From sequence record NC_048731.1: a stretch of 64,000 nucleotides of DNA. One strand, given 5' to 3'. The translations under genes were made by a program, and so were the position numbers. Position 1 is the stretch's first letter; each line of letters starts with the position of its first letter. Positions 5,309-51,799 of the stretch are shown one piece after another. The notes beneath the pieces were generated by a model, which saw only the letters and a list, made by a program, of their open reading frames with translations, ran no database searches and was not told the origin of the DNA. This DNA comes from Escherichia phage fp01.

Positions 5309-5379
5309 ATATACATAAATTTGAGAGAGAAAGTTTCGGATTGATAAGAAAGTCCGAAGCAGAAAAATAAAAATTTTAG

Positions 5380-5409
5380 TTGCTAAATTCTCTCGAAATC
5401 TAGTATAAT
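5380..5409 (+). promoter_or_regulatory. sigma70 promoter (T5 early type), tandem copy
   Basis: 'TTGCTA' + 18 nt + 'TATAAT' followed by 'ATATACATAAATTCGAGGAG'; near-duplicate of the promoter at 5280-5308. Confidence 0.45.
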
Positions 5410-6567: not shown

Positions 6568-6574
6568 TAAATAG

Positions 6575-6598
6575 AGGGGCTTCGGCCCCTTTCTTTTT
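6575..6598 (+). terminator. rho-independent terminator
   Basis: Hairpin 'AGGGGC-TTCG-GCCCCT' (UUCG tetraloop) followed by 'TTCTTTTT'. Confidence 0.7.
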
Positions 6599-6603
6599 AA
6601 CCA

Positions 6604-9400: not shown

Positions 9401-9403
9401 AAC

Positions 9404-9886: not shown

Positions 9887-10761
9887 TGAGTAAATCCTGG
9901 GGAAAATTTATTGAAGAAGAGGAAGCTGAAATGGCTTCCCGTCGTAACCTAATGATTGTCGATGGAACTAACTTAGGCTTTCGCTTCAAGCATAACAATA
10001 GTAAAAAACCATTTGCCTCAAGTTATGTTTCCACTATTCAGTCTCTTGCAAAATCTTATTCTGCTAGAACTACAATAGTTTTAGGAGATAAGGGGAAGTC
10101 TGCATTCCGCTTAGAGCATTTACCTGAGTATAAGGGTAATCGAGATGAGAAATACTCTCAGCGTACGGAAGAGGAGAAAGCGTTAGATGAGCAGTTCTTC
10201 GAGTATTTGAAAGATGCTTTCGAATTATGTGAAACTACGTTCCCAACTTTCACTATTCGTGGTGTAGAAGCAGACGACATGGCAGCTTATATTGTTAAGC
10301 TCATCGGGCATCTATATGATCATATTTGGCTAATTTCTACCGATGGTGACTGGGATACTTTATTAACTGATAAAGTATCTCGCTTCTCTTTCACAACACG
10401 TCGTGAATATCATCTTCGTGATATGTATGAGCATCATAATGTTGACGATGTAGAGCAGTTTATCTCCCTGAAAGCAATTATGGGTGATTTAGGGGATAAT
10501 ATCCGAGGTGTTGAAGGTATTGGGGCAAAGCGTGGGTATAATATTATTCGTGAATTTGGTAACGTTCTGGATATTATTGATCAGCTTCCACTGCCTGGAA
10601 AACAGAAATATATACAGAATTTAAATGCTTCGGAAGAATTGCTTTATCGAAACCTAATTCTGGTTGATTTACCTACCTACTGTGTGGATGCTATTGCTGC
10701 TGTAGGTCAAGATGTATTAGATAAATTTACAAAAGATATTTTGGAGATTGCAGAACAATGA
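9886..10761 (+). CDS. flap endonuclease / 5'-3' exonuclease (T5 D15-like, 291 aa)
   Basis: N-terminus 'MSKSWGKFIEEEEAEMASRRNLMIVDGTNLGFRF' and overall sequence match what I recall of T5 5'-exonuclease; conserved acidic clusters 'VDGTN', 'GVEADD', 'STDGDWD'. Confidence 0.85.
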   Translation: MSKSWGKFIEEEEAEMASRRNLMIVDGTNLGFRFKHNNSKKPFASSYVSTIQSLAKSYSARTTIVLGDKGKSAFRLEHLPEYKGNRDEKYSQRTEEEKALDEQFFEYLKDAFELCETTFPTFTIRGVEADDMAAYIVKLIGHLYDHIWLISTDGDWDTLLTDKVSRFSFTTRREYHLRDMYEHHNVDDVEQFISLKAIMGDLGDNIRGVEGIGAKRGYNIIREFGNVLDIIDQLPLPGKQKYIQNLNASEELLYRNLILVDLPTYCVDAIAAVGQDVLDKFTKDILEIAEQ

Positions 10762-11204
10762 TTAAAATTAAATTAACTCATCCAGATTGTATGCCTAAGA
10801 TTGGTTCCGAAGATGCTGCAGGTATGGATCTGCGAGCATTCTTTGGTACTAACCCTGCTGCAGATTTACGTGCTATTGCACCAGGCAAATCCCTAATGAT
10901 TGACACCGGTGTCGCGGTGGAAATTCCGCGAGGTTGGTTCGGTTTGGTAGTTCCTCGTAGCTCTTTAGGTAAGCGTCATTTGATGATTGCAAATACCGCG
11001 GGAGTGATTGACTCAGACTATCGTGGAACTATTAAGATGAACCTGTTCAACTACGGTTCTGAAATTCAAACTCTGGAAAATTTTGAAAGACTTTGTCAGC
11101 TGGTAGTAGTACCACACTACTCAACTCATAATTTTGAAATTGTTGACGAACTAGGGGAGACTGATCGTGGAGAGGGTGGCTTTGGAAGTTCGGGAAGTAA
11201 ATAA
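10758..11204 (+). CDS. dut: dUTP pyrophosphatase
   Basis: dUTPase motifs 'AGMDLRA', 'VPRSSLG', 'GVIDSDYRGT', 'RGEGGFGSSG'. Confidence 0.85.
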   Translation: MIKIKLTHPDCMPKIGSEDAAGMDLRAFFGTNPAADLRAIAPGKSLMIDTGVAVEIPRGWFGLVVPRSSLGKRHLMIANTAGVIDSDYRGTIKMNLFNYGSEIQTLENFERLCQLVVVPHYSTHNFEIVDELGETDRGEGGFGSSGSK

Positions 11205-11228
11205 TCTACATATCAAATAAATAATAAA

Positions 11229-11260
11229 CCCCAGAGGGATATCCCTCTGGGGTTTTCTTT
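11229..11260. terminator. bidirectional rho-independent terminator between converging modules
   Basis: Hairpin 'CCCCAGAGGG-ATAT-CCCTCTGGGG' flanked by A-run upstream and 'TTTTCTTTTATT' downstream. Confidence 0.65.
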
Positions 11261-13389
11261 TATTGAGGTACTATCTGTACCTTTAATTGCTTGAGTTCTT
11301 CTTCTAAGTCTTCAATCCTTTTAATAAGATCTTGAACAACATGCATAGTATCAAGAAGCATTGGAGTTGTATCAAGTTCTTTTTGTTCCTGTTCTGCCCC
11401 ATTGTTATCATAGAATTTTCTAGTTTTAACATAAAGCGGTTCTATAACTTCTGTTTCCTGAGCGATAACACCTCGTCTTATACGTTGAAGATTATCGTTA
11501 TTATATATGAATGTCACAAAGTTTAGATTTTTGATGTTTTCTAAAGCTTTTTCAACAGTTGTATTTTCTATAGAATGTTTAAGGCGCCTATCTGAAGTTG
11601 CATTCTTTTGTAAAGTGTATGTTTCTTCTGATCCTGGTTGCCATTTGTGGAAAAAAATATCGGAATTTAATGGTTGAATACCGACACGAACTCCATAAGC
11701 GTTATTAGCATCGCCAGCAATATGCCATACGGATTGTGCAAAAGATGTTCCGTTGTGATGAATCATCCCCCAGTGACACGAAGTCTTATAACCACCTTGA
11801 CTAGATTGGGCACCACTAAGAAGACTATTAAAAGCGTAATTTGCTCCAATAGCCTGGTCTTCCGCGCTAAATGTACCTTTAGTAAAACCTGTTTCACTCC
11901 AAGCCATCATAGTCCCATATCTTGCTCTATATCGATCGCTACTCAGCGTACCTGTGTCATCAAAGGCAAGGTCTTTTGTCACCCCTTTTGTCTTGTTGTA
12001 TACAGACAGAATCGCATAATAAAGGCCATCCATGTATGCATCGCATCGCAATCCTGCATCCGCTTCAACAACGGTGCCGATTTTGTATTGGGCCTTTACC
12101 TGTCCTGACAATGCCTTTACGCCAGAGCCTGGGCGGACAGCATCAGCATTCATTACACTCCAAGACGTATTCGCGGCAACAAAGCCACCAGAGGCACGAA
12201 TCACCCAAACGCCGACAAAGTTGCGCGGAACGATTTCTGCTGCTGAACGACCATAAACAGGACTGCAGCGAGAAGCGTCAAAGTTGGTTTGTATGTACCT
12301 TGAACCAGAGCCAACCGCAGCAGGAGCGTCCCCCGAAGTTATCGACTGAAAAGCACCGTTAGTTGCCACTTGGCTTGCTAAAGAAGCCAATGTCACCATT
12401 GTGTGCGGCGCTGCGTAAGTTATATTTGGAGCGCCTGATTCAGACACAACCCCGTTGGACGATGAATTCCCGCCGTCACCCCTGCCAAATAAGGCCTGTA
12501 TGGAACCAGTTTGAACACCGTTCCTGTCAGGCACTCGAAACGTTGTTGTTCCGTTACCCAAAGAATATTTACCACGCTTTGATGCGTCAGCAAGCCATTC
12601 CGCATCTGAAATCGGCGTAAGCATTTGCGCATATGCCCAAAGCTCAGGCCAGTCAGCCCTGTTAAGAAGCTGCCCATCAGAAACCACCTCATACGGTTGA
12701 ATATACGCACGGCTATCTCGAAGATGGAAATCACCGACACCGTAGTTCATCACGCCATTCATTGTGGGTCCTACTGTGCCAGTATTAATTTTGTTCTCCA
12801 CCCAACGCTTAGTTACAGCATCATAATCATTAACGGGGTCTCCCGCAAGGGGGGTAGATCCAATAGGACGAACATTTAACCACGCAGCTGCGCGATCTGC
12901 TAAATCTGATAAATTATTTTCAGTCAATAGGCTTTCGTCTTTTGTTGGCACATTATAACTTTGTCTAAAAGCTTCTTTTGATACTACTCCAGTACCCCCT
13001 TGTTCTATAGAAAGTGCAGTGGTTAAACCTGTTAAAGATTTAATAGTTGAGTTGGCACCATCCATGTCTATACTAGCAAATCTTGACCATGCAGTCCATG
13101 AACTGTAAAAAGATCTACTATATATCTCATTACTATTATAAGGTAAGTAAATTTGAGTACAAGAAGTTGCTAAATTGCTTGCATTATTTTTTAAAACTAG
13201 TAATGTACCTGCAGCCGCAACAGGATAGTTAAGAGAAGTAGGAGAGTTAGCATTTTCAGATTGCCAATACTTTCCATACACACTCCCATCAAGTGTATTT
13301 AAATTTGTTCCTGTAGTAATTAAACCATATACAGGTAAAGCGGCTACATCAGTAGCCTTTAAGTTAATTTTATCAATTCTAAGAGCCAT
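11260..13389 (-). CDS. L-shaped tail fibre distal protein with C-terminal intramolecular chaperone (auto-cleaving) domain
   Basis: C-terminal ~110 aa ('KHSIENTTVEKALENIKNLNFVTF...EDLEEELKQLKVQ') resembles the S74-type chaperone domain found at the end of T5 pb1 and other phage fibres; body is Gly/Ser/Thr-rich. Confidence 0.65.
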   Translation of the reverse strand: MALRIDKINLKATDVAALPVYGLITTGTNLNTLDGSVYGKYWQSENANSPTSLNYPVAAAGTLLVLKNNASNLATSCTQIYLPYNSNEIYSRSFYSSWTAWSRFASIDMDGANSTIKSLTGLTTALSIEQGGTGVVSKEAFRQSYNVPTKDESLLTENNLSDLADRAAAWLNVRPIGSTPLAGDPVNDYDAVTKRWVENKINTGTVGPTMNGVMNYGVGDFHLRDSRAYIQPYEVVSDGQLLNRADWPELWAYAQMLTPISDAEWLADASKRGKYSLGNGTTTFRVPDRNGVQTGSIQALFGRGDGGNSSSNGVVSESGAPNITYAAPHTMVTLASLASQVATNGAFQSITSGDAPAAVGSGSRYIQTNFDASRCSPVYGRSAAEIVPRNFVGVWVIRASGGFVAANTSWSVMNADAVRPGSGVKALSGQVKAQYKIGTVVEADAGLRCDAYMDGLYYAILSVYNKTKGVTKDLAFDDTGTLSSDRYRARYGTMMAWSETGFTKGTFSAEDQAIGANYAFNSLLSGAQSSQGGYKTSCHWGMIHHNGTSFAQSVWHIAGDANNAYGVRVGIQPLNSDIFFHKWQPGSEETYTLQKNATSDRRLKHSIENTTVEKALENIKNLNFVTFIYNNDNLQRIRRGVIAQETEVIEPLYVKTRKFYDNNGAEQEQKELDTTPMLLDTMHVVQDLIKRIEDLEEELKQLKVQIVPQ

Positions 13390-39322: not shown

Positions 39323-39436
39323 TTTGACTTTTGCCAAATTTCATAAGATTACACATGGAGGTGTGCCCAGTGGGTTGGGGGAGAATACTTAGTCTGCTAA
39401 CCGCCACCCCCGTTACTATTACCTTGCTAACTGTTT

Positions 39437-39471
39437 CATCCTGTAACCATTTTAATTACAGGATGAAACTA
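39437..39471. terminator. strong hairpin (13-bp arms) downstream of dmp-like gene
   Basis: 'TTTCATCCTGTAA-CCATTTTAA-TTACAGGATGAAA' perfect inverted repeat. Confidence 0.45.
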
Positions 39472-39486
39472 TGTCAACTTTAATTA

Positions 39487-40221
39487 TTACGCAACTTTTA
39501 ATTTCTCAATATATTGTTGCGGGCTGCAACTATATTCTGCGCGTTCTTCCTCGGTCATACTTTCCCAACATAATTTCAAACGATCGGCTAGGAACTGATA
39601 ATCATTATCATCCTCGAGGGATTCATCAATAAAGGTTCCGCCTATCAATGCCACGCCGATTGATAGAATATCATTAACGGCTTGCGCATCTAGCGTTTTA
39701 AATCCATATGACGCAGCCGCTGATAATACACCTTTATGATCATCAATCATTGTAAAATCAGCGTTCGGATATAGCTGTTTAAATAATTCAAAGTAATAAC
39801 TTTTGTATACTGCGTCCTTGCTGTGGTATATCTCGCTAACCTTATCAGCCTCAAAATATTTATGCAGTGTATCGCGGGAAAATACACGGATATTACTATC
39901 ACCACGCCCGCGCAATCCTTGTTTGCGCAAATAATAATAATCCGACTTGCTCATCAGCCGAGCGGTGCAAATAATGTTTAAAGTATTTGAGTCATTCATA
40001 CATTGGCGCATATATTCCACCAAAGGTAATAAGGTGTCTTGCATTATTAAATCATGTTTACACGCTTCATTTTTATACTTATTTAAATTTAAATTCCCGT
40101 CGCTATCAAAGCAAGGCGCTACACGATGGAAAGAATTAATGATAGTGCCGTCCAGATCCCAAATCATGACGCGGGAAATATGCGGGAAATTACGGGAAAT
40201 ATTCATAATAGCTTTATTCAT
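39487..40221 (-). CDS. dmp: HAD-superfamily 5'-deoxyribonucleotidase (T5 Dmp-like)
   Basis: HAD motif I 'IWDLDGTI'; 244 aa; sits downstream of the A1-like gene in the GC-richer island. Confidence 0.6.
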   Translation of the reverse strand: MNKAIMNISRNFPHISRVMIWDLDGTIINSFHRVAPCFDSDGNLNLNKYKNEACKHDLIMQDTLLPLVEYMRQCMNDSNTLNIICTARLMSKSDYYYLRKQGLRGRGDSNIRVFSRDTLHKYFEADKVSEIYHSKDAVYKSYYFELFKQLYPNADFTMIDDHKGVLSAAASYGFKTLDAQAVNDILSIGVALIGGTFIDESLEDDNDYQFLADRLKLCWESMTEEERAEYSCSPQQYIEKLKVA

Positions 40222-40300
40222 TTGTTACGTTCTCCATTAAAGGGATGTAGTTTATCCAGCACTGCCCGCTATTTATAAGCGGGCAATAATAAATCAACTA

Positions 40301-40693
40301 TCAAAGACCATAAGCCAAAGCATCGGCGATAAAACTAATATCTTCGCCGGATATATGGGAACGAATACCCGCGCAGATATACACCTTTGCGCTTGATAGC
40401 TGATCATCAAAGCAAGCCGGACAAGGCGCGACAACTGCAAACGCAAGGCCAGCTTTCACGGCGTCAATGATAATCGTTTCTTGTTTCACCGTATCAACAT
40501 AAACGCCTGCGGCCTTGATGTAACTACTTGCGCGGCCTTGCGTATAGGCGAAAGTCGTGATCTGTAGCGCCTCATTAAATTCGATTAAATCATCAACAAC
40601 GTGACCGGCCTCAACGTGATACCGCTCACCATTAGAATAAACCAGAACGATTGAGGATTGAGCGCGATCGAATGGAATATTTTGCTTTTTCAT
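40301..40693 (-). CDS. hypothetical protein with HxE...PCxxC motif
   Basis: 'YHVEAGH' and 'APCPACF'; start 'MKKQNIPF' with leader 'TTAAATTAATTGGAGTTT'. Confidence 0.5.
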   Translation of the reverse strand: MKKQNIPFDRAQSSIVLVYSNGERYHVEAGHVVDDLIEFNEALQITTFAYTQGRASSYIKAAGVYVDTVKQETIIIDAVKAGLAFAVVAPCPACFDDQLSSAKVYICAGIRSHISGEDISFIADALAYGL

Positions 40694-40759
40694 ATTTATA
40701 AACTCCAATTAATTTAATAAGGGGCATAAGCTGGAAGTATTTCCAGCTTATAAATTTAA

Positions 40760-42424
40760 TTATGCGAAAAATTTGCCGTTTTTAAAGTCAATCAAAGTGC
40801 GTTGCCCGTTGGCGTATGTAATTAAATGCGTTTGCGTCCAGCTTGACGCGCCAACGTTGTAACCCATATCCAGACTACCAGCTACGCCAGCGGTATAAAC
40901 GCCGCCATAAATGCTAGCGGTGTGAGTGTGTCCGGTGTTTAACTTGCCCAATTTCTTAAACTGCTTAGGATTGCCACGGCTGCCGTTTATGCCGTTATGA
41001 CCGTGTACACCACACTCAATGCCTGCAATTTTGAATGATTGATCAGTCGTTAGGAAAATCGCGTTAAACTCGCAACCTGCGACGCTACGCAGCGCATAAT
41101 CTAGCACGTTGAAAGTATCGTCATGATTACCGATTGCCGCGTAAATTGCAGCATTAAGGCGGTGATATAGTTCCGCATTGGCTGGGTCGTCTTTAATGTT
41201 AGCATTACGATCATCAAGCCAACGAGATAGCGCCAAATCGTGATTCGATTCAACAATGATCGTTTGACTAAAATCACGCTCCATCGATTCCAGCACGCGC
41301 CCGGTATCGATAAGATCATCAATAACCTTATCCCGTCCGGCTGCATACTGTTTCGCTAGAAATACACCGGAAGCGCGGTTATGATGATTGCGCGATGTAA
41401 AATCATGCACGTCATGGATAAACTGATATTTAGGCTTGAGAATATCAAGCAAACTATTGTCGCCAGCCCATGACGCTGCGGCGCACTCCTCATCTAATTT
41501 TTCGGCGTGAATGTCACCATACTGTAAGCCTAAAACATGCCCCGATGTTTCATAGCATCCGGCGGGAGTAGCGCAAACATTCAGATCATAAAACACCCCG
41601 CTTTCATCCATTGTTTCAAGCTGGCGAACAAAAAATTCACCGTCCTCATCGAACTCGACAATCAGCGCACCAAAGTTATGAAGTGCTTCCGCTTTCTGTC
41701 CTGCTTTCTGCTGAATGTAGTTTTTGAGTGTTGCCGTTCCGGTTGAATACATGCGGCGCACCACTTCACCTTTTAAAGCTGGGACGCTTTCGGCGGTGAT
41801 TTTAGCGTGACCAATTGCCAGACCCTCGATATTTAAAGCCGTTGCAGTTTCTGCAAATCCAGAAAGCGGATAATCTGCGGTTGGCAAAACATTAATTTCA
41901 GCCATGAAAGCAAAACGGCGGTTATTTAAAAACACGTTTTTGCTGCAAATATACTTATCAAAAGCGGAATCATATTTGATTCCGTCAGCACCTTCCCCAT
42001 TTTGGAATCCGTTTTTATTATAAATATACTTAGAAACAAGCAAATCAGCGCCGATAAATTTGGCATATTGTTCAAGCGAGGACAAAAAGTTTTTATGCGG
42101 GAAAGTATTATTCTGAATCGATGTAATAATAAAGCGTTTGCCTTGTTTTACTTCCCACTGTTCCACGGTACTAGAAACAATTCCAGCCGCTTCGGGGCGC
42201 TCATCGTTTTTAATGGCTTTTACCGCTTTCGCCGCTTTCGGTTTAGCTGGTTTATTTGCTTCCAGCCAGTCGCAGATAGCGGTTGAATGTTTTGCAGTAT
42301 CGTAAACCGCTTTTGATATATCGTCGCAGACCTCCAATTTAGTAGCGCGCAGACGTTTACCATAGAAATTAAAGTCAGCGGCTAGTTTCAGGATAGCGGT
42401 TTGTTTTTCTGCGGAAAAAATCAT
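40760..42424 (-). CDS. A1: pre-early A1-like protein with metallophosphatase (Mre11-like) motifs
   Basis: ~554 aa from 'MIFSAEK'; 'GDIHAE', 'ESNHD', 'GHNGINGSRG', 'TGHTHTA' phosphoesterase motifs; size and position match T5 A1 as recalled. Confidence 0.65.
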   Translation of the reverse strand: MIFSAEKQTAILKLAADFNFYGKRLRATKLEVCDDISKAVYDTAKHSTAICDWLEANKPAKPKAAKAVKAIKNDERPEAAGIVSSTVEQWEVKQGKRFIITSIQNNTFPHKNFLSSLEQYAKFIGADLLVSKYIYNKNGFQNGEGADGIKYDSAFDKYICSKNVFLNNRRFAFMAEINVLPTADYPLSGFAETATALNIEGLAIGHAKITAESVPALKGEVVRRMYSTGTATLKNYIQQKAGQKAEALHNFGALIVEFDEDGEFFVRQLETMDESGVFYDLNVCATPAGCYETSGHVLGLQYGDIHAEKLDEECAAASWAGDNSLLDILKPKYQFIHDVHDFTSRNHHNRASGVFLAKQYAAGRDKVIDDLIDTGRVLESMERDFSQTIIVESNHDLALSRWLDDRNANIKDDPANAELYHRLNAAIYAAIGNHDDTFNVLDYALRSVAGCEFNAIFLTTDQSFKIAGIECGVHGHNGINGSRGNPKQFKKLGKLNTGHTHTASIYGGVYTAGVAGSLDMGYNVGASSWTQTHLITYANGQRTLIDFKNGKFFA

Positions 42425-42518
42425 AGTAATAAACTCCATTAAAGGGATAAAAAACGTTTGTTATTGGCAATATTGCCAGATATAACGCCTTGAATAATAG
42501 GCGTTATAATTTGCAACA

Positions 42519-42716
42519 TTAATTTAAAGGCATAAGGCTAGAACTAACACCACAAACAACGGCGGCAATAAAACAAATCAGACCTAAACGCTTCGCTAAC
42601 TTAGATTTGCGTTTAAAATAATACGAATCTAAGTCATTTTGAAAATATGCGAACAATAACGAGGCCGCCATAATAAATAGTCCTAGAATCAGCGATTCAG
42701 TAGGGTAAAAGATCAT
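42519..42716 (-). CDS. small two-TM membrane protein (65 aa)
   Basis: 'MIFYPTESLILGLFIMAASLLFAYF...LICFIAAVVCGV'; leader 'CCCTTTAACTGGAG'. Confidence 0.4.
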   Translation of the reverse strand: MIFYPTESLILGLFIMAASLLFAYFQNDLDSYYFKRKSKLAKRLGLICFIAAVVCGVSSSLMPLN

Positions 42717-42745
42717 TTTAATAACTCCAGTTAAAGGGAAATTAT

Positions 42746-42765
42746 AGTGGGGAATAATCCCCACT
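42746..42765. promoter_or_regulatory. perfect inverted repeat between A2-like and small membrane genes
   Basis: 'AGTGGGGA-ATAA-TCCCCACT'. Confidence 0.35.
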
Positions 42766-42773
42766 AGTTAAAT

Positions 42774-43181
42774 TTATTCACCTGCGGCCTGTTTTACTTC
42801 ATCGGCAACGCCTAACAACTGCGCCACGGCGTCCAGCGTTTCCAGTTTCGCGCTTTCAAGGCTTGCCAGATCATCGGCGTCTTTGATAATGCCGGAATCA
42901 ATAGCGTGTTTTGCAATTACTCGCACATAATGAGCCTTGCGGATTGAACTGCCGCCGCCAACTTTGCGCGGCTTATCGCTTTTTTGATAGGCTTTCGCGC
43001 TGGTCAATTTTGAGCGAACGGATACGGGAGAAGTCGCGCCCACTGCCTTTGCAATCTCTTTCAGGCCGTCGCTATTTGCAAATTCTAAACCGTTTTCGTT
43101 GATTAACTGCTGATACAGGGTAACAGCTTTTTGGGTGTTGTCTTCATTCCAAGTGAATTTTGCGGTTTTTGCGTTAGTCAT
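42774..43181 (-). CDS. hypothetical pre-early protein (A2-sized, possibly DNA-binding)
   Basis: 135 aa, Lys/Ala-rich; upstream of the A1-like gene in the same operon; leader 'TTAAATTAATTGGAGTTT'. Identity with T5 A2 is a guess from order and size. Confidence 0.3.
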   Translation of the reverse strand: MTNAKTAKFTWNEDNTQKAVTLYQQLINENGLEFANSDGLKEIAKAVGATSPVSVRSKLTSAKAYQKSDKPRKVGGGSSIRKAHYVRVIAKHAIDSGIIKDADDLASLESAKLETLDAVAQLLGVADEVKQAAGE

Positions 43182-43279
43182 GGTAAAAACTCCAATTAAT
43201 TTAATTTAAGGGATTAGATTAACTAATGTTAATCGTTATAACCCTCCTTATTCTAGGAGGGTATAAAGTTAACACTAAT

Positions 43280-43531
43280 TTATAATACAGCTTCCCATTT
43301 TTCGTTGCGTTGAACAACCTTTACAACATCGCCTGATTTAACGCGAACGTTATAAACGGTTTTGCCGTTGTTACTGCGTTCTGTTTCAGCGTATACCGCG
43401 TCGATTGTATCGAACGGCATAAGCGCCGCGCCTTTAATACGTTCGGCCTTTCCGGTTAATTCATCCGTTTTAGTAACGAAAGGAATAAAAACGGATTGAC
43501 CAATTTTAGGCGTGGTAATAACGTTTTGCAT
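43280..43531 (-). CDS. hypothetical protein (83 aa)
   Basis: ORF with 'GGAG' RBS. Confidence 0.45.
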   Translation of the reverse strand: MQNVITTPKIGQSVFIPFVTKTDELTGKAERIKGAALMPFDTIDAVYAETERSNNGKTVYNVRVKSGDVVKVVQRNEKWEAVL

Positions 43532-43762
43532 AATATAGACTCCAGTTTATTCAGTGGATTGTTCCGCATTACCTGCTAGAAAATAACAGGTAATAAGAAA
43601 AAATCCGCTCGCCATTATAAAATCAAATTAAAGAACTCCACGCGGGCCGCTATATCCCAGTTAGGGGGCGAGACACATTATGGTAAGTGCCGACCGTCAA
43701 ATTGTATCAAGTTATCGCTCTTTTCGAACTGGGTATATCTTAAAAGCCCATCGGCTAGGTTG

Positions 43763-43963
43763 TCAAACTATTTTTTGCAGTTTTTTATGATTTTCCTTCA
43801 GGTCAATCATAATATTACGCCAGATCATTTCTAAACCTTGCTGGCGCCCTTTCTTGTACTGCGTGAAGCGGTATTTTACCGATCTTTGCGCTACTGTCAA
43901 TAATTTTTTAGTTTCGCTATCCAGTGCCTTGCTAGGTTTACCAGTGATCAATAGAGTTTGCAT
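43763..43963 (-). CDS. hypothetical basic protein (66 aa)
   Basis: ORF; coupled to an upstream 52-aa ORF by TAATG overlap. Confidence 0.35.
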   Translation of the reverse strand: MQTLLITGKPSKALDSETKKLLTVAQRSVKYRFTQYKKGRQQGLEMIWRNIMIDLKENHKKLQKIV

Positions 43964-44121
43964 TATTTGAGATCCTCCAAAGCGTATAAACCTTTGCCAT
44001 CATTGCAGATTATTACTGCTTCTGAATAGGTGGCATGATATTCGTTTGCCGCTTTTACCCATTGCTCGATCTTTTCGATCGTGTCGTGGGTAGCTGGATG
44101 ATCGTTATATATTGTTTGCAT
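43963..44121 (-). CDS. hypothetical protein (52 aa)
   Basis: ORF 'MQTIYNDHPATHDTIEKIEQWVKAANEYH...' translationally coupled to the next gene. Confidence 0.25.
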   Translation of the reverse strand: MQTIYNDHPATHDTIEKIEQWVKAANEYHATYSEAVIICNDGKGLYALEDLK

Positions 44122-44583
44122 ATCGTCGATTCCTTATAATGAATAAGTTTACCGCCGATAGGCTTTTAAGATATACCCAATTTTTAAAGAGCGCGGCGGT
44201 AAACTCCCCGCCGTGTAGTTCGTCATTGCCGCCCTACGAGATAAATAATAACAAACAACGAAAAAGGCGCAACCTTATATTTGTAAAGAAATGTAAAGAC
44301 AAAATCCACCGGACACCGTGCGGCGATCTGGGCGCGACGGCCTAAAATTAAAAGAAACGGGCGCGCGAATACCACAAAACACAGCAGATAAGCAAGTAAT
44401 TTTTTCATTTATATTTGCTTTGCCCTACTTGACAAAATCTAAAAAGCTCGTGGCGACGATAAACGACGTGGCCCCTTATGATTGGATGGCTAAAAACTTT
44501 ACTGCGTTCTGGGGCGTTTCAGGCCGCTTATTTTCGACTTAACAAATCATTAACAAACGCAAAATTGAAAAATAGTTGGAAAA

Positions 44584-44609
44584 GGTCTTGACTTTTAAAA
44601 ATCAAGACC
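44584..44609 (-). terminator. hairpin downstream of HNH gene
   Basis: 'GGTCTTGA-(10 nt)-TCAAGACC'. Confidence 0.4.
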
Positions 44610-44633
44610 AAATGACTTAATTTATTAAATTAA

Positions 44634-45152
44634 TTAATTGACAATTCCAAATTCAGCTTTTTTAGTTTCAAGCCATAATAATAACTCTTGTAAATCATAA
44701 CCTGACTTACTAACACGCTTGTTAGTAATAGGATTCTTAATTTGAGCAGTCAAATAGTCACGCCCGTAACTATCACGGGGGCGAACTTTATTAACGTAAA
44801 TGTTTTTAGGGATACCATTAGCACGCTTACAGTTTTCATACTCACTAGGAGTACGATTATAATTATTCTGCGAACTATCAACCGCGCGAAGATTCCAGAT
44901 GTTATTATTACGAGTGTTACGATCGATATGATCAATCATTAGCTCGCTATCTATACCGCCATTCATTATACAAAAGATAATTCTATGTACTTTTAACTGT
45001 CCCATGCCTAATAGTTCAACTTGCCAATAATTACCATTTAAACCACCTGCGACGGCGTGATCTTCCCGCCAACGTAAAAATGATAACGCTGTTTCATCAT
45101 AATAAAAGTAACTATTAAAAAGATCATAATCTATATCTTTATATTTACCCAT
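44634..45152 (-). CDS. HNH homing endonuclease
   Basis: 'IDHIDRNTRNNNIWNLRAV' HNH motif; gene is markedly AT-richer than its GC-richer surroundings. Confidence 0.65.
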   Translation of the reverse strand: MGKYKDIDYDLFNSYFYYDETALSFLRWREDHAVAGGLNGNYWQVELLGMGQLKVHRIIFCIMNGGIDSELMIDHIDRNTRNNNIWNLRAVDSSQNNYNRTPSEYENCKRANGIPKNIYVNKVRPRDSYGRDYLTAQIKNPITNKRVSKSGYDLQELLLWLETKKAEFGIVN

Positions 45153-45717
45153 TGTTATAGTTTCCTTATGTTATTAATTTAATCTCTATTATATTATATC
45201 AAAACAATTAGCAGACTAGCTAATGAGTTTTTCAGGTTTAATTAGCAGACTCATAATCACTCTAAAAACCTATTAGCCAACTAACTATATTTTATTATAT
45301 AATAACTGTATAAATTAGTTAGTGAGAACCACTATCATTTAAGTTACCCACAGCCTTATACATTTTGTAAAATAATTTGACACAATAGGCGGCGATATGA
45401 GGGCTTTTACACAGACTTATCCACAGGTTATTCCACTGTATAAATATACAGGGTAAAAAGGTAGTGTTAACAACTGCAATCAATTTTAAGCGGCCTAAAA
45501 CGCTTTCTAACGAGCTAAACGCTGCGGGGTAGTATTAAAGTAAAGCCTTCACCCGTCGGCCTGGTGGCTTCGCCGTGTCTTGCTCTTTACTACACCGCTG
45601 CGCGGTTAGCATAAAACTAGGTGTTAGGCAAGGAAAATAAAAAAGTAAAATAATCTTTGCCTATGCTAGAAAATTACCCTTATCATTCACTCACCGATTA
45701 ACGAGGGAGGCCAACAA

Positions 45718-46704
45718 ATGCGGCTATATAAACCAGATAACGCAACCGTCTTAAAAGGTGCGCTGCGTAACCTGCTGGACGGTAGCAGAACAACCAGCAT
45801 TAAACATTTTGTTTTCAATATTGAAACTATTCATCAAAACTTTTTTGATGATTATGATGCTTACAATATGAATAGTTTTCTACCGTTATATAAGCAAGGG
45901 GCAACGCTTGTTTTATATAATCAGGATTATCAATTACTTACTAGTAGGGGGCCGGATACTGATTTCATAGTCGTAAAAGGCAACACAGTAAAAGCCTATG
46001 ATACTGGGGCGGGCTTAGAAGTTTTTTCAATAGAAAACTATGAAGCCAATGATAATGATCTTTATGACGTAGAAAATTTTCTTGATTCATTTTGGCGTTA
46101 TTTATCAGTTGGCTGGAATCGGTCGGATTCTGATGGGTATCGTTTTGCGGCTATAATGGCCTTTGATGATAACGGTAATTTTTTGCTACCGTCGGAGTTA
46201 TATAATCGGGTATATGAAGGCGATATTGTTGACGCCGGATTTTCTTTCGAAAGGGAAGAAAGTATTGACAGTATAGAAAAACATGCTGTAAATTCTAACA
46301 CTAAAAGCGTTCACACTCAAACTACTGAAAACAAAGGAAAAAATGCCATGACCAAGATCGCTAACATCGTTGCCGCCAATAAGTCTGCCGTTGTAAACGC
46401 TGCAAAACTGGAAGCGGGTAAAATTGCACTGACTCAAATTACGAAAGTAGCGGCTAAAAAAGCACCGTTCATGATCAAAGGCTATATTGATACGCCGATT
46501 GGTCGTGTAGTGATCGCTAACCTGCTGAGTGTAGCGGTTGACCAGTACGCCCCGAGTAACCAGAAAGCGAAAGCGGTAGCAGGGGCGGCTATGGAAGCGG
46601 CGATGTTGGAAATGGTGCAAAGTTTTAACATCGCTGAGATGATTGATGAAATGGTAAAAGGTATCGATATTTCTACTTTCACCACTAACACCGAAAGCGA
46701 GTAA
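45718..46704 (+). CDS. hypothetical protein, acidic N-terminal half and Ala/Lys-rich C-terminal half
   Basis: 328 aa; RBS 'GAGGGAGG'; first gene of a tightly packed plus-strand operon. Confidence 0.6.
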   Translation: MRLYKPDNATVLKGALRNLLDGSRTTSIKHFVFNIETIHQNFFDDYDAYNMNSFLPLYKQGATLVLYNQDYQLLTSRGPDTDFIVVKGNTVKAYDTGAGLEVFSIENYEANDNDLYDVENFLDSFWRYLSVGWNRSDSDGYRFAAIMAFDDNGNFLLPSELYNRVYEGDIVDAGFSFEREESIDSIEKHAVNSNTKSVHTQTTENKGKNAMTKIANIVAANKSAVVNAAKLEAGKIALTQITKVAAKKAPFMIKGYIDTPIGRVVIANLLSVAVDQYAPSNQKAKAVAGAAMEAAMLEMVQSFNIAEMIDEMVKGIDISTFTTNTESE

Positions 46705-46768
46705 TAATAACTAGCGGGGTAACAATCCCCGCTTTACTATTCCCTTGTTAATTAATAGGAGGCTAATT

Positions 46769-47086
46769 ATGCAGCTTAACAAAAAAATGCTAGAACAATT
46801 GCGGGGTAGAATCCAGCGCGATGACTACCCTCACATTAATTATTCTTCGGAAGTAGTAGACACTGCCGATTCATGGAAAAAAGCAGGTTACCCCTATGTA
46901 TGGCAACATGCAGAAAGCGCAAACGGATTCCATGCCTTTCGTGATTTAGGTCATGGAAAACTTTGCGTTTTTAAAGGTGAGTTATTAATAGGAGTATCAG
47001 AATCGGAAGTAATCACGGATGAGGTTGTATTCTTAGACAATGACCAATATGAAACAGGCAATCAGTTTTATTTTCCCGCTAATTAA
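46769..47086 (+). CDS. hypothetical protein (105 aa)
   Basis: Start 'MQLNKKM' preceded by 'TTAATTAATAGGAGGCTAATT'. Confidence 0.55.
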   Translation: MQLNKKMLEQLRGRIQRDDYPHINYSSEVVDTADSWKKAGYPYVWQHAESANGFHAFRDLGHGKLCVFKGELLIGVSESEVITDEVVFLDNDQYETGNQFYFPAN

Positions 47087-47100
47087 TAGGAGGCTAATTA

Positions 47101-47595
47101 ATGGCTGAAGAAAAATATGGCTTCTCACTGGGAGAAGTGAGCACGGCAAAACATGATATGATCATTTTAGTCGATTGTCATACTGGCTATTGCGGGGAAG
47201 GGAATACCGAGGAATATTTTGTTCCTGCTGGTACGGATCTAGACGCTTTCGCTCAGGAAATGGCTATTGATAATGCTTCTCGTTTTGGTAGCGATGGCTA
47301 TGAAGACGAGGAAACTGGCGAATGGTATGAAAATGAAAACGTATATGCGAGCCTTTATCATTATCAATTAAGTAAATCCGGCACATATGTAAACGGCGGC
47401 GATCCTATTAATTCCGTCATGAAATTAATTATTAAACACGGTGGCGTCGAGATAATTGATAACAAAGCGGTAATATATGCAAACCGATTAAAACAGCTTG
47501 TTTATATCCCTGATAGTACCCGATGGGATGAATACGCCGTTTTGCATGACGAATTGAAACGATGTTTCAATGTTGAAGCCTTACAAGTAGTCTAA
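47101..47595 (+). CDS. hypothetical acidic protein (164 aa)
   Basis: Preceded by the same 'TTAATTAATAGGAGGCTAATTA' cassette; Asp/Glu/Tyr-rich. Confidence 0.6.
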   Translation: MAEEKYGFSLGEVSTAKHDMIILVDCHTGYCGEGNTEEYFVPAGTDLDAFAQEMAIDNASRFGSDGYEDEETGEWYENENVYASLYHYQLSKSGTYVNGGDPINSVMKLIIKHGGVEIIDNKAVIYANRLKQLVYIPDSTRWDEYAVLHDELKRCFNVEALQVV

Positions 47596-47701
47596 TGTAA
47601 AGTTTTGTAAAGGTCGCCTTTTATGGTGGCCTTTTTTGCTATAATGCCTTTACACCGTTTGAGGACGGTTGAAAATTTTCCCAAAAATTTGGAGGCTTAA
47701 A

Positions 47702-47932
47702 ATGGTTGCTTATTCTTCTTCTGACGCTCTTTTCACTGGGAAAGGCTGGGTATCTAATCGCTGGATTATTCAAGAAATGGTGCAAGAATACGGCATTGCT
47801 AAAACTTACACTACCATTCAGGCGCTTTATGATAATGATCAAATCGATCAGCAAACGGCGGGCTTTTTGCTGGATACCCTGAAAGCGGAACACTGTACCA
47901 AAAAACAAGCGGCAAAAATTGTTTTAATGTAA
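47702..47932 (+). CDS. hypothetical protein (76 aa)
   Basis: ATG at 47702 with 'GGAGG' RBS; preceded by a 'TATAAT' element at 47639-47644. Confidence 0.45.
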   Translation: MVAYSSSDALFTGKGWVSNRWIIQEMVQEYGIAKTYTTIQALYDNDQIDQQTAGFLLDTLKAEHCTKKQAAKIVLM

Positions 47933-47981
47933 TTAATAACGGGGCGTTACTTTCGCCCCACTAACTAGGGGAGTAGTACAA

Positions 47982-48164
47982 ATGGTTATTTTTCGAGCTG
48001 TTCTAGCAGGTATCTTGGGCGCTATTTTGACCCTTTTCGCCACCGCGTATGGTATTCAGGATTCCTATTGCGGTTTGGTAAATACAAAACCAATGGTTAC
48101 TATTGGCGCTGGCATTGCTGTATTTTCTTATCTGCTAGGCTGCATGACTAGTAAAGGAGAATAA
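47982..48164 (+). CDS. small membrane protein (60 aa, two TM)
   Basis: Hydrophobic 'VIFRAVLAGILGAILTLFATAYG' and 'TIGAGIAVFSYLLGC'. Confidence 0.45.
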   Translation: MVIFRAVLAGILGAILTLFATAYGIQDSYCGLVNTKPMVTIGAGIAVFSYLLGCMTSKGE

Positions 48165-48166
48165 AA

Positions 48167-48379
48167 ATGATCCGCAACGTTTCTCTTGCACGTTCGAAAG
48201 GCTTTAAGCTGGTGGATGCTAACACGTTCGAGCGTCTTGATTGTAAAATCGAATATGTAGCACGTAACAAAAATGCCTTTCGTGTTACCGAGAAAAAATT
48301 TGACAAGCGCGGCAACGTGATCGCTGAAACGGTTAAACACTTTGCCACCTTTTACGCTGCGTTTCGTGGGGTGTTATAA
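48167..48379 (+). CDS. hypothetical basic protein (70 aa)
   Basis: 'AAGGAG' RBS; coupled to neighbours. Confidence 0.45.
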   Translation: MIRNVSLARSKGFKLVDANTFERLDCKIEYVARNKNAFRVTEKKFDKRGNVIAETVKHFATFYAAFRGVL

Positions 48380-48380
48380 A

Positions 48381-48725
48381 ATGGTTATTTATGAAGGCAA
48401 TCGTTTTGTTGCTAATTGCCGCCCGGCATTGTTAGCAAACTATTTAAATCAGCTTTCGCCAGCTTATAAGGGCGTTATTAATATTTATGAGGGCAAGGCA
48501 CATTATAAAATTAATGCGGTCGTTGCCCGTGAACTAGCATTTCAATTTTTGACCTTTGCATCTTGTGACGTTCAAGTTATGGGTGAAGCATTAATTGCGG
48601 AAAATGAAGAGGATTTTATTAATATTTTCCGCAAGGTATGCACCGAGCGCCTGATAATGAAAGGCGCGTATATTCAATCCACTGCGGATAGTATTGAAAC
48701 AGCGTTTCGAAAGGTGGCACAATGA
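48381..48725 (+). CDS. hypothetical protein (114 aa)
   Basis: ATG at 48381 directly after upstream stop. Confidence 0.5.
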   Translation: MVIYEGNRFVANCRPALLANYLNQLSPAYKGVINIYEGKAHYKINAVVARELAFQFLTFASCDVQVMGEALIAENEEDFINIFRKVCTERLIMKGAYIQSTADSIETAFRKVAQ

Positions 48726-48880
48726 AAAAGTTTTTAATAGCTGGCATGTTTCCTTTGTTGCCTTATGTAATTTGCTGGGCTTTATATGCTCATGGTGCTA
48801 GTGTTCCCGGTGTGGCTGCATTTGGTGTATCAGCGGGCTTTCTAGCCGGACTACTAGCAAGCGTATATTTACGCAAGTAA
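48722..48880 (+). CDS. small membrane protein (52 aa)
   Basis: 'MKKFLIAGMFPLLPYVICWALYAHGASVPGVAAFGVSAGFLAGLLASVYLRK'; ATGA overlap with previous gene. Confidence 0.4.
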   Translation: MKKFLIAGMFPLLPYVICWALYAHGASVPGVAAFGVSAGFLAGLLASVYLRK

Positions 48881-48899
48881 TTAACAACGGAGCGTTATT

Positions 48900-49094
48900 A
48901 TGAGCAATAAAATTATTGTAACCAAAACCAGCACAACGGTTGATGTTTTTTACGTGCCCGATACGCCGGAAAACCGACAAGCGGTCGAGCGTGGGGAATA
49001 TGATAAAGTGATTTATGATCACGATGGTTATTATCAGTATTTGGTGGATTCATATGGGGAGGAGGAAAAGATCACGCACCGACTACCGGACTAA
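48900..49094 (+). CDS. hypothetical acidic protein (64 aa)
   Basis: Last ORF before the repeat landscape. Confidence 0.45.
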   Translation: MSNKIIVTKTSTTVDVFYVPDTPENRQAVERGEYDKVIYDHDGYYQYLVDSYGEEEKITHRLPD

Positions 49095-49133
49095 TAATCA
49101 CGGGGCGCAACTATCAGGAAGTGCCCCCAATTC

Positions 49134-49158
49134 TCAAATGAGAATGATTCTCATTTGA
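49134..49158. repeat. perfect 25-nt palindrome
   Basis: 'TCAAATGAGAAT-G-ATTCTCATTTGA'; motif 'AAATGAGAATGATTCT' recurs at ~49650 and ~49700. Confidence 0.85.
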
Positions 49159-49360
49159 CCGCGCCCGCGATGGTTAGCCTGCTAATGGTTAGGGTGTTAC
49201 GTGTCGCCTTGTGTGATCGTTAGCGAGCTAACTAATTTTCAAGCCTCCTCCAATTTTGCCCTTGTTTTAGTATCCCCACCAAAATTAAACGCGTTAGAAT
49301 GCGTTTGAGGGCGTTTTAGCGGTATATTAGAATTATTCACTGCGTAGGAATACTGTATAT

Positions 49361-49460
49361 TTATCCAGTAGGATAAGCTGTGGATAAGTCTGTTGATAAC
49401 GCTTCAAAACGGCTAGGATTTTGTCAAGTCAAATCGTGCTGTTGATAAGTCTGGGGATAA
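49361..49460. promoter_or_regulatory. cluster of DnaA-box-like 9-mers
   Basis: 'TGTGGATAA' (perfect complement of TTATCCACA) plus 'TGTTGATAA' x2, 'TGGGGATAA', 'TTATCCAGT' within ~100 bp. Confidence 0.6.
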
Positions 49461-49485
49461 CTTAAATAATAGTGTTTCTCACTTC

Positions 49486-49740
49486 CGTTCTTAAATGCGA
49501 ATCATTATCATTTGCATTCCACTTCCTGAATAAGAATCATTCCACTATCTAAACGATAATCATTCCACTTCCTGAATAATAATCATTCCACTATCTAAAT
49601 AAGAATCATTCCACTATCTAAACGATAATCATTCCACTTTTTAAATGAGATTGATTCTCATTCCACTTTCTAAATGCGAATTATTATCATTCGCATTCCG
49701 CTTTTTAAATGAGAATGATTCTTATTATCATTCGTATTTA
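49486..49740. repeat. tandem iteron-like ~23-bp repeats
   Basis: About 8 head-to-tail units of 'CATTCCACT(A/T)(T/C)CT(A/G)AA(T/C)(A/G)A(T/G)AAT' with variants. Confidence 0.8.
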
Positions 49741-49762
49741 GCGCAGAGCAATTGCTCTGCGC
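49741..49762. repeat. perfect 22-nt palindrome followed by T-run
   Basis: 'GCGCAGAGCA-ATT-GCTCTGCGC' then 'TTTTGTG'; could act as a terminator or protein site. Confidence 0.8.
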
Positions 49763-49765
49763 TTT

Positions 49766-50369
49766 TGTGCAAAACCGACATTGCTCCACGGGTGTTACGT
49801 GCGGGCGTATGTGCAAATCCGACAGGATTTTTGGTAGTGTGCAAATCCGACCCGAAAAATTTTTATAGTGTGCGAATCCGACAATGAATTTTTCCAAAAA
49901 CTCCAGCAATCCGATGCTGCGCATCAATCCTGTGGAATTAACTAGAATATGTGCAAATCCGACATGAGTTTATTTGTGCGAATCCGACAAGATTTTTGTG
50001 ACTTCGATTGGAGGGTGTGTGATTGTGTGGGTTTGGGGAGAAGTTGAGAGAGCGAGGGAAAATTAGGGGAGAAGCTAGAGAGGCGCATGTTTGGTGCGGG
50101 GGCACCCGATTTGCGGGGATTTTGGGGAAGAGTTGAGAAGATTTGGGTTAATTTGAGATTAGTGGAGATAAAGTAAAATTTTATTAGCTAAATGGGGCAA
50201 AATAGCTTGACAAGTGAAAATTCTTGTGGCTCTAAAAACTCAGGCAATCATGGGCCTTCGGCCCGAAATAATGCTGCCATTTTCAAGAGATTATGTGTCC
50301 ATGAAAACTTAGGCAATTGTGCAAATCCGACCATAAATTTCTAGAAACACAATGTGCAAATCCGACAGT
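49766..50369 (+). repeat. eight dispersed direct copies of a 14-nt motif
   Basis: 'GTGC(A/G)AA(A/T)CCGAC(A/C)' at ~49767, 49811, 49840, 49871, 49950, 49977, 50320, 50353, all on the same strand. Confidence 0.8.
50000..50200 (+). repeat. purine-rich G-tract region with 3 copies of 'GGGGAGAAG(T/C)TGAGAG'-like unit
   Basis: Strong G+A skew on plus strand; G-runs 'GGG','GGGG','GGGGG' spaced by short linkers. Confidence 0.7.
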
Positions 50370-50914
50370 AAAATCCAGAAATGTGTTTTCAAAAAATGTT
50401 GTCTAGAAATAACCGCCCTCCCCATAACCGCCCTGTATTAAACCGCCTAGTATATGTTCCTAGAAACTTAGGAGAACCGCCCACTAGAAGTGTGATATCT
50501 CGTGAGTATTTCGTGAGAACTCTGGAGTTTCTAGGAAAGTGTTGTGCCATCCTAGCAGATGAGCGGCAACAGGTGTATCATCTTGAATGTAAATTATGTG
50601 GTCAAAAGTTTTACTTTTATTTTAAATATAAGATCCCCCAGGGTTCTCATATAGAGCTTTGCCCCCGCCAGAAGGTCTCGTGATGTTTCTAGCAATTTAT
50701 ATTAAATTACTTATTAACTTGTCCTGTCGCTCCGTATCCTCCGCTACAAGTTAGTAATTTTAAATTACTGAACCACCACACCTTCTGTGTGGCAACTCTA
50801 AATGGTTAATTCTATTAACTCATAGAGTTATGATAACATACATTTAGCTATCTGTCAACGAGAGTTTGTATTTGAGTCTCGGTACAGGTATTGTGCACCG
50901 AGACTTGCAGGATC

Positions 50915-51799
50915 TTACAGTAACTCTTGGTATGCTTTTTGATACGCCTCAGTGTCCGTAGGTGTACCTTTTGCAATGGCTATTAATTCATCTGTAATCT
51001 GAATATTCGTATTATAACGTGAGTGGAACTCGTCAGGAATTTCTAGATACCTATTGATGAATGCTGCAGCAAGCGGTGAAGCTACACCCATTTCTAGAAC
51101 CCATCCAACATGGTTTTCAAATTTCAGATAAGGAGAATCAGATGGGATTGGTGGGGTTACATCAATTTTCTCTGGTTCTTTTTCTGGAAGCAACGGATTA
51201 TTATATAATGCTTCATCTGGAAGCACAGATTTACGCTCTTTAAATATATAAGTTTCTAGATCAGATGCTTTAGATCCTGAGTATACAGCAAAGATGCTAG
51301 CTTTACCTTGTGATGCTCTAACTGGTAGATAACTAGTAGGATAGCTTCTTAATGCATCATGGAATGGACTTCCTGAATATTTGTACGTATCCCCATAGAG
51401 ATCGTCAATATTCATTCGTTCATCTTCAAAAATGTGAAATGACTTAAATGGTGGAATGGTGAAGTATTCCATCTGTAATCCATAAACTAAGAAACGATGT
51501 GCATATGCACTGATTTTTAAGACTGTGAATGCTTTTTCACCTTCTTTATGGGCATTGCCCTTTGAAGTAACTGGGTAACGTTTACAAAACATCTCTACTA
51601 GACGTTTCTCATTAAGACTAAGGGTGGAGTACAGTCGTCCACTTAACCCTATAAGTGCATCGAACATAAATGCTAGTTTATCTTTTTCTTCTTGGGTTAG
51701 TTCAGGAAACGGAAGTACTTTAGCATTAGGAACACTATTATTCTCCTTTGCCTTTACTTTGCCAGCATTTTGTCTTAGTTTATCTTTAAAGTTATACAT
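50915..51799 (-). CDS. hypothetical early protein (294 aa)
   Basis: Long ORF, first gene of the minus-strand early block after the repeat region. Confidence 0.55.
   Translation of the reverse strand: MYNFKDKLRQNAGKVKAKENNSVPNAKVLPFPELTQEEKDKLAFMFDALIGLSGRLYSTLSLNEKRLVEMFCKRYPVTSKGNAHKEGEKAFTVLKISAYAHRFLVYGLQMEYFTIPPFKSFHIFEDERMNIDDLYGDTYKYSGSPFHDALRSYPTSYLPVRASQGKASIFAVYSGSKASDLETYIFKERKSVLPDEALYNNPLLPEKEPEKIDVTPPIPSDSPYLKFENHVGWVLEMGVASPLAAAFINRYLEIPDEFHSRYNTNIQITDELIAIAKGTPTDTEAYQKAYQELL

Follow-up and report, generated by a model that had tools for sequence, protein, structure and literature searches.

The pre-early genes of phage T5 are the closest described system to the locus considered here, a block of nine genes at positions 45718-49094 of a 64,000-nucleotide (nt) stretch of Escherichia phage fp01 (NC_048731.1; this whole stretch is the window below). 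Mahata et al. cloned 13 T5 pre-early or early genes in 2021 and found that 008, 011 and 015 were toxic (PMC8201957). Annor et al. expressed all 17 T5 pre-early genes, and the toxic ones of the right arm were 011, 013 and 015, with phenotypes of nucleoid disorganisation for 011, lysis for 013, and elongated cells with trapped nucleoids for 015; gene 011 was said to resist functional predictions (bioRxiv 10.64898/2026.04.02.716235). T5.015 binds the host uracil-DNA glycosylase Ung, cleaves the abasic sites that Ung makes, nicks dUMP-containing host DNA and arrests replication and division (PMC8201957). T5.012 was not toxic in the T5 studies (PMC8201957; bioRxiv 10.64898/2026.04.02.716235), nor was T5.017 (PMC8201957). 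A T5 mutant in which only A1, A2, hdi and 009 were kept is viable (bioRxiv 10.64898/2026.04.02.716235), and therefore the genes from hegG to 017 are dispensable on laboratory hosts. Record AY692264 describes the 011 product as a 37-kD pre-early protein and places its gene in a non-essential deletion region, and the text of a T5 knock-down screen names A1 and A2 as top fitness genes. When infection by the T5-like phage Bas33 was blocked after first-step transfer (FST), transcripts of the pre-early region and 11 of its proteins were detected by RNA sequencing and proteomics. A first-pass annotation of the window, made from its letters alone, had taken only dmp, A1 and A2 to be characterised. That statement is out of date, because T5.015 was characterised in 2021, hdi has been characterised (as cited in bioRxiv 10.64898/2026.04.02.716235) and all 17 pre-early genes were surveyed in 2026.

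Comparison with T5 indicates that the fp01 block is very probably the set of right-arm pre-early genes in a T5-like phage (Tequintavirus, fp01-type), orthologous to T5.011-T5.017, and a dispensable accessory host-takeover module. As such it is already known, as the mapped, non-essential right-arm pre-early genes of T5. The region was matched in 433 phage records, the best of them a Tequintavirus at 95.5%. The terminal repeat of T5 (LTR, 15-11499) is collinear with window positions 39378-51478, which therefore places dmp, A1 and A2 upstream on the minus strand and the injection-stop repeats downstream; the block lies between the dmp/A1/A2 arm and this repeat-rich region, in the orientation opposite to the former. 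By BLASTP, six of the nine proteins are orthologues of T5.011,.012,.013,.014,.015 and.017, with 77-99% amino acid (aa) identity over their full lengths and with gene order kept. The block thus shares with T5.011-T5.017 (NC_005859 6495-9157) its position in the FST terminal repeat and its divergent orientation to dmp-A1-A2. Two differences set it apart from T5: an 883-bp insertion at 46709-47591, which carries g2 and g3 between 011 and 012, and the replacement of T5.016 at 48727-48878 by g8, which encodes a 52-aa membrane protein. All nine proteins match PHROG families (E<=7e-26). Seven of the proteins, among them g1, g2, g3, g6, g7 and g8, were compared with those of phage fp01 and are identical to them. 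The genes are as follows.

45718..46704, plus strand: g1, 328 aa, orthologue of T5.011 (77% identity), Pfam DUF7566
46769..47086, plus strand: g2, 105 aa, N-terminal half of phrog_16959
47101..47595, plus strand: g3, 164 aa, phrog_6741, acidic
47702..47932, plus strand: g4, 76 aa, orthologue of T5.012 (99% identity)
47982..48164, plus strand: g5, 60 aa, two transmembrane segments, orthologue of T5.013 (93% identity)
48167..48379, plus strand: g6, 70 aa, basic (pI 10.2), orthologue of T5.014 (97% identity)
48381..48725, plus strand: g7, 114 aa, orthologue of T5.015 (93% identity over 114/114 residues)
48722..48880, plus strand: g8, 52 aa, two hydrophobic segments, phrog_35622, sits in the T5.016 slot
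48900..49094, plus strand: g9, 64 aa, acidic (pI 4.66), orthologue of T5.017 (89% identity)

The regulatory signals around these genes are also held in common with T5: the promoter, the terminator and the bracketing inverted repeats occur in both. The region of the g1 promoter shows 94% mean column identity over the annotated T5 promoter 6411-6489 in a three-way alignment with T5 and chee24, and the promoter upstream of T5 011 has been described as experimentally characterised (bioRxiv 10.64898/2026.04.02.716235). The terminator after g3 aligns base-for-base with the annotated terminator after T5.011, and the equivalent of the hairpin after g1 is annotated as a terminator in phage HASG4. A scan of 44500-51000 with Rfam returned no RNA family. 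Together these comparisons establish the orthology and synteny of the block and the conservation of its promoter and terminator, as those described below establish its domain and evolutionary anatomy. The signals are listed here.

45657..45686, plus strand: sigma-70 promoter TTGCCT-18-TATCAT upstream of g1, found by promoter scan, orthologous to the promoter before T5 gene 011
46713..46733, plus strand: GC-rich hairpin after g1, 7 pairs and a weak T tail, a possible attenuating terminator
47609..47634, plus strand: intrinsic terminator after g3, 10-pair stem and T-run
47635..47701, plus strand: predicted second pre-early promoter region, TATAAT at 47640-47645, homologous to 'T5P5', which is putative in AY587007
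45321..45451, no strand: left arm of the inverted repeat (T5 IRC-spacer-IRD), ~130 nt, with a consensus DnaA box TTATCCACA at 45417
49353..49483, no strand: right arm of the inverted repeat (T5 IRD'-spacer-IRC'), with a DnaA box TGTGGATAA at 49379, where the injection-stop region begins

Much of the gene layout had been read correctly in the first-pass annotation. The nine packed plus-strand genes that it described are nine consecutive open reading frames (ORFs) at 45718-49094 in the ORF listing of the window, their orientation opposite to dmp/A1/A2 and their position next to the repeat landscape are confirmed by the collinearity with the T5 LTR, and Shine-Dalgarno motifs, as it had noted, are present upstream of eight of the nine genes. 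Other points had to be revised. We chose starts by Shine-Dalgarno context and by the lengths of T5 orthologues, and moved three program-called TTG starts (46745, 47669 and 48342) to downstream ATGs, which in g2, g4 and g7 have better ribosome-binding sites than the TTGs. The start of g2 becomes the ATG at 46769 after AGGAGG, in place of the TTG at 46745; that of g4 becomes 47702, giving the 76 aa of T5.012; and that of g7 becomes 48381, giving the 114 aa of T5.015. With these starts the several start/stop overlaps claimed earlier are reduced to one, an ATGA at g7/g8, and two further junctions leave 2 and 1 nt. Nor is the block a simple operon as had been proposed, since the hairpin at 46713-46733, and the T-run hairpin at 47609-47634 followed by a predicted promoter region, interrupt it. 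Instead of three tiny membrane proteins two are predicted, g5 and g8, each with two hydrophobic segments. The GC content is raised as stated (0.406 against 0.386 for the window) but unremarkable, at the 87th percentile of equal-sized sliding windows or ~1.2 standard deviations, and this percentile rules out elevated GC as a mark of foreign origin.

The one biochemical activity known for this gene set has probably been attached to the wrong neighbour in databases. In RefSeq and PHROG 4227, the name 'endonuclease nicking abasic sites generated by host uracil glycosylase Ung' is placed on the 70-aa protein (T5.014; here g6), which is numbered T5.014 in AY543070, ORF015 in AY587007 and T5p013 in AY692264. 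In UniRef, AAS77062.1 (T5.015, 114 aa) and its relatives are named 'DNA-(apurinic or apyrimidinic site) endonuclease'. Locus tags, together with UniRef names, settled which protein '015' is. The T5.0xx tags in the two experimental papers are those of AY543070/NC_005859, where T5.015 is the 114-aa protein (PMC8201957; bioRxiv 10.64898/2026.04.02.716235), and because these tags and the UniRef name point to the 114-aa protein, the Ung-dependent activity is assigned to g7. The g7 protein is the orthologue of the Ung-binding apurinic/apyrimidinic (AP) endonuclease T5.015, 93% identical to it and kept in the same position; Ung binding and AP cleavage, which were shown for T5.015, are predicted for g7 by orthology. 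The endonuclease label on g6 is probably a propagated error, and its likely cause is that AY587007 names the 70-aa gene ORF015. Sequence searches of the Protein Data Bank (PDB) with g6 and g7 gave nothing significant.

These assignments suggest how the block may work. The first ~8% of the genome would enter the cell, and the host sigma-70 RNA polymerase would read g1, and with it g2 and g3, from the conserved pre-011 promoter. Transcription would be attenuated at one or two terminators and re-start before g4, to read the tightly packed g4-g9, of which g5-g8 would be translationally coupled. The g7 protein would then bind the host uracil-DNA glycosylase and cut the resulting abasic sites, arresting host replication and division, while g1 would disturb nucleoid organisation and g5 damage the membrane; g2, g3 and g8 would occupy exchangeable accessory slots. 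We infer from the likeness in sequence that the fp01-type orthologues behave like those of T5. Expression timing, the biochemistry of T5.015, toxicity and dispensability are carried over from the T5 literature and presumably apply. The proposal of the first-pass annotation that first-step-transfer DNA carries host-takeover functions gains support from g7, as an orthologue of T5.015 (93%), and from the toxicity of the T5 orthologues of g1 and g5. Several points weigh against assigning the block this role. All functions in the fp01 block are transferred from T5 by orthology, and g2, g3 and g8, three of the nine genes, have no T5 counterpart. Host takeover would be a broad label, with 011 and 013 backed by over-expression toxicity only. 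The toxicity and lysis of 013 were seen in one study and not in another, and dispensability was shown on laboratory strains only.

We turned to databases of families and folds to characterise the proteins. Scans of all nine proteins with Pfam, NCBIfam and PADLOC (defence-protein models) gave DUF7566 for g1 alone; in PHROGs, none of the nine belongs to a functional family beyond the doubtful endonuclease label on g6. The match of g1 to DUF7566 (PF24450) covers residues 2-328 at 373.5 bits, against a gathering cutoff of 27. The predicted model of g1 consists of an alpha/beta N-terminal domain (residues 1-184; predicted local distance difference test (pLDDT) ~78-93), a disordered linker and a helical, Ala-rich C-terminal domain of low confidence. 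The two parts evolve at different speeds. The N-domain is 33-36% identical to its Epseptimavirus homologues. The C-domain (201-328) is 90-98% identical to them, although 24-30% of the codons for identical residues differ synonymously, and the aa identity kept despite this synonymous change therefore reflects very strong purifying selection, while the N-domain diverges fast. Many g1 homologues in NCBI and UniRef, for example in Salmonella phage STG2, bear the name 'DNA N-6-adenine methyltransferase'. We rejected this name, which has no Pfam or fold support: neither Pfam nor the predicted fold revealed an S-adenosylmethionine-dependent methyltransferase domain or a Rossmann fold in g1. The N-domain had no fold match to a known protein, and a PDB sequence search with g1 was not significant. 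At codons 204-211 of g1 (46330-46350), an invariant Met211 is preceded by GAAAAYAAAGGAAAAAAY (AAAGGA), a candidate internal ribosome-binding site that could give a product consisting of the C-domain only. The codons near Met211 show no variation, yet most Lys and Glu codons in the rest of g1 do not vary either.

Comparison with relatives revealed where the block varies. The core genes g1, g4, g5, g6, g7 and g9 are found again in most of 29 related IMG/VR loci, with three slots of variable content.

Slot between g1 and g4, 29 IMG/VR loci: empty, g3, or g2+g3
Slot between g6 and g7, 29 IMG/VR loci: 0 to ~250 bp, often with tiny hydrophobic ORFs
Slot between g7 and g9, 29 IMG/VR loci: empty, g8, T5.016 or other small genes

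The natural Tequintavirus DT57C (KM979354 4000-10500) has only orthologues of 013, 014 and 015 between its inverted repeats and so defines 013-014-015 as the minimal conserved trio. The g2 gene, which is absent from T5 and chee24, illustrates how a slot is filled. Near-identical copies of it are rare, and homologues with 44% identity occupy the same position in Epseptimaviruses. A profile comparison found g2 and g3 to be unrelated. A 20-nt direct repeat, TAATTAATAGGAGGCTAATT, occurs in exactly two copies in the 64 kb and flanks g2.

46749..46768, plus strand: first copy of the repeat, carries the g2 ribosome-binding site
47080..47099, plus strand: second copy of the repeat, carries the g3 ribosome-binding site

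Relative to chee24, g2 is the only extra gene, and chee24 has one copy of the repeat; the repeat therefore marks an insertion/deletion junction.

A mosaic gene content, together with flanking inverted repeats of ~130 nt whose spacing ranges from 1851 to 4258 bp across T5-like phages (Davison 2020, bioRxiv 10.1101/866236), would also be expected if the segment between these repeats were not fixed in the phage but a cassette able to invert or move. We consider this extremely improbable, and rejected it because no relative departs from one orientation: the 29 related loci all agree in gene order and in orientation relative to g1, and T5, chee24 and DT57C share the orientation of the block relative to flanking annotated genes. 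Scans of the nine proteins with Pfam, PHROGs and further families found no recombinase or transposase encoded in the block. The content varies by slot-wise insertion and deletion, as the 20-nt repeat flanking g2 exemplifies, and the bracketing repeats carry paired DnaA boxes and have been implicated in the injection stop (bioRxiv 10.1101/866236).

In the relatives, the slots between g6 and g7 and between g7 and g9 contain tiny hydrophobic ORFs of 35-53 aa, of which at least five are unrelated, along with a few small soluble ORFs of 66-71 aa; genes for small membrane proteins have a hot spot in the right arm. It is conceivable, if quite improbable, that the locus exists for its small membrane proteins (g5 and g8, with the tiny hydrophobic genes that fill the slots of relatives) and that these work at the inner membrane while transfer pauses, in superinfection exclusion, control of ion leakage or modulation of the DNA-transfer channel. 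The two hydrophobic segments in each of g5 and g8 and the recurrence of unrelated hydrophobic ORFs in the slots speak for this, as do the lysis-like damage caused by T5.013 expression (bioRxiv 10.64898/2026.04.02.716235) and the proposal that FST DNA is membrane-bound during the pause (bioRxiv 10.1101/866236). However, the T5 mutant without hegG-017 still completes two-step transfer and infection (bioRxiv 10.64898/2026.04.02.716235), the tiny ORFs of relatives are putative gene calls, and a role at the membrane would leave the six soluble proteins unaddressed.

The remaining accessory gene of the first slot, g3, belongs to a family confined in our searches to phages of this kind. It is absent from T5 and DT57C. 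Homologues with at least 80% identity were found in 239 phage records, compared with ~440 records with A1 at the same threshold; the family profile, run against 1.84 billion representative proteins, returned only 33 clusters, and the named relatives are all from T5-like phages. The first-pass annotation had singled out two markedly acidic proteins, and the values bear this out: g3 has a pI of 4.44 and a net charge of -17, below the 5th percentile of window ORFs, and the N-terminal half of g1 has a pI of 4.40 and a net charge of -15. Acidity is a family trait of g3, shared by all 36 aligned members (36/36; pI 4.0-4.8, median net charge -0.115 per residue). Conservation falls on core positions occupied by Thr, Gly and Ala (TGxCGE, NAxSxG, YVNGGDP). 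The most acidic loop, which is variable, carries in many relatives a CPxC...CxxC insertion that is zinc-ribbon-like, where the window protein has only 'YEDEETGEWYE'. The g3 model is confident and had no match to a known fold; a Foldseek search of viral models (BFVD) found only uncharacterised phage proteins, mostly from T5-like phages, with the named matches from Salmonella, Klebsiella, Pectobacterium, Pantoea and Vibrio phages, and a PDB sequence search with the g3 profile gave nothing significant.

Small acidic proteins encoded on the DNA that enters first bring to mind T7 Ocr and plasmid ArdA, which g3 resembles in size, acidity and location. The block, chiefly g3 and the g1 N-domain, might then be an anti-defence or anti-restriction module whose DNA mimics block restriction enzymes or other DNA-binding nucleases and so shield the second-step DNA. 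Apart from the acidity of the g3 family, which persists in all 36 members even at 22-30% identity, this would accord with the 33% identity of the g1 N-domain against 90-98% for the C-domain, a contrast compatible with an arms race, with the exchangeable accessory slots at the locus and with the depletion of several defence motifs in FST DNA. It would also accord with the resistance of Tequintaviruses to restriction-modification (R-M) of types I, II and III unless sites lie in FST DNA, a protection ascribed to a putative FST-encoded factor (PMC10644984).

On balance we regard this explanation as unlikely. The net charge of g3 is -0.10 per residue, lower in density than that of Ocr and ArdA, and g3 has neither sequence nor fold similarity to these proteins. 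Unlike them, it has conserved globular-core motifs, and its relatives have the zinc-ribbon-like insertion; conservation in g3 lies in the Gly/Thr/Ala core and not in the acidic loop, which is variable and, in relatives, holds the CxxC...CxxC insertion. The g1 N-domain likewise lacks a fold match. Nor does the presence of g3 track restriction insensitivity. T5, which has no g2, g3 or g8, and DT57C, which has orthologues of 013-015 only, are both in the resistant Tequintavirus panel as the text of that study describes it, with the caveat that DT57C and T5 with EcoR124I did not obey the FST-site rule (PMC10644984). Judged by gene content across these phages, g1, g2, g3, g4, g8 and g9 are not required for insensitivity to classical restriction. 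Conversely, the Epseptimaviruses Bas26-29, which Skutel et al. describe as generally more restriction-sensitive (PMC10644984), belong to a group that carries g1, g2 and g3 homologues. The 013-015 trio comprises the only right-arm genes common to all phages examined, and it is also present in the more sensitive Epseptimaviruses, so it does not discriminate. Davison's candidate for restriction insensitivity is T5p007, on the other arm (bioRxiv 10.1101/866236). The earlier suggestion that the acidic proteins are DNA mimics found no support in any of these analyses, and the gene content compared across phages argues against an anti-defence or mimic role in classical restriction; some member of the block may still act against other defence systems.

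The anti-defence islands in the leading region of conjugative plasmids are reportedly a similar arrangement, in which early-expressed genes on the first-entering DNA form a mosaic of small accessory genes. The block differs from these islands in that its only member with a known function attacks host DNA, not a defence system. A more speculative idea, to which we give little credence, is that g3 (phrog_6741) represents an overlooked pre-early family, lost by T5, that inhibits a host DNA-binding nuclease or a defence system other than classical R-M, and that, jointly, the g1 N-domain would be an arms-race interface on an invariant effector domain. We continue to favour the identification of the block with the pre-early genes of the T5 right arm.

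We also counted recognition motifs in the FST-equivalent DNA (39378-49700) in comparison with the remainder of the window. CCWGG occurs once where 11.9 are expected, GGTAAG (BREX) once where 7.4 are expected and AGACC (EcoPI) six times where 13.2 are expected, and there are no EcoRI, EcoRV, EcoKI, EcoR124I/II, HindIII or PstI sites; single P values are soft, given how many motifs were tested. This depletion agrees with the view in the literature that FST DNA depends on avoiding such sites.

Two neighbouring regions deserve mention. Upstream, a minus-strand ORF at 44634-45152 encodes 172 aa, the length of T5 hegG (putative HNH endonuclease T5.010). It falls within a stretch that is collinear with the hegG region of T5, directly upstream of the divergent promoter region; expressed on its own, T5 hegG is toxic (bioRxiv 10.64898/2026.04.02.716235). 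Downstream, the injection-stop region (49127-50372) contains five overlapping copies of a 69-nt unit with 23-nt spacing at 49515-49675, six copies of a 29-mer containing a palindrome, and eight 15-mers resembling TGTGCAAATCCGAC at 49765-50366.

What remains of interest in a block whose identity is otherwise familiar is the g3 family, absent in T5, together with the two-speed g1 and the probably mislabelled endonuclease. The endonuclease label, probably on the wrong neighbour, is being passed on from database to database in the annotation of phages. For the T5-like phages as a group, the protection of second-step DNA from restriction, CRISPR and RecBCD by a first-step function is a long-standing question, and the comparisons made here narrow the search for it.

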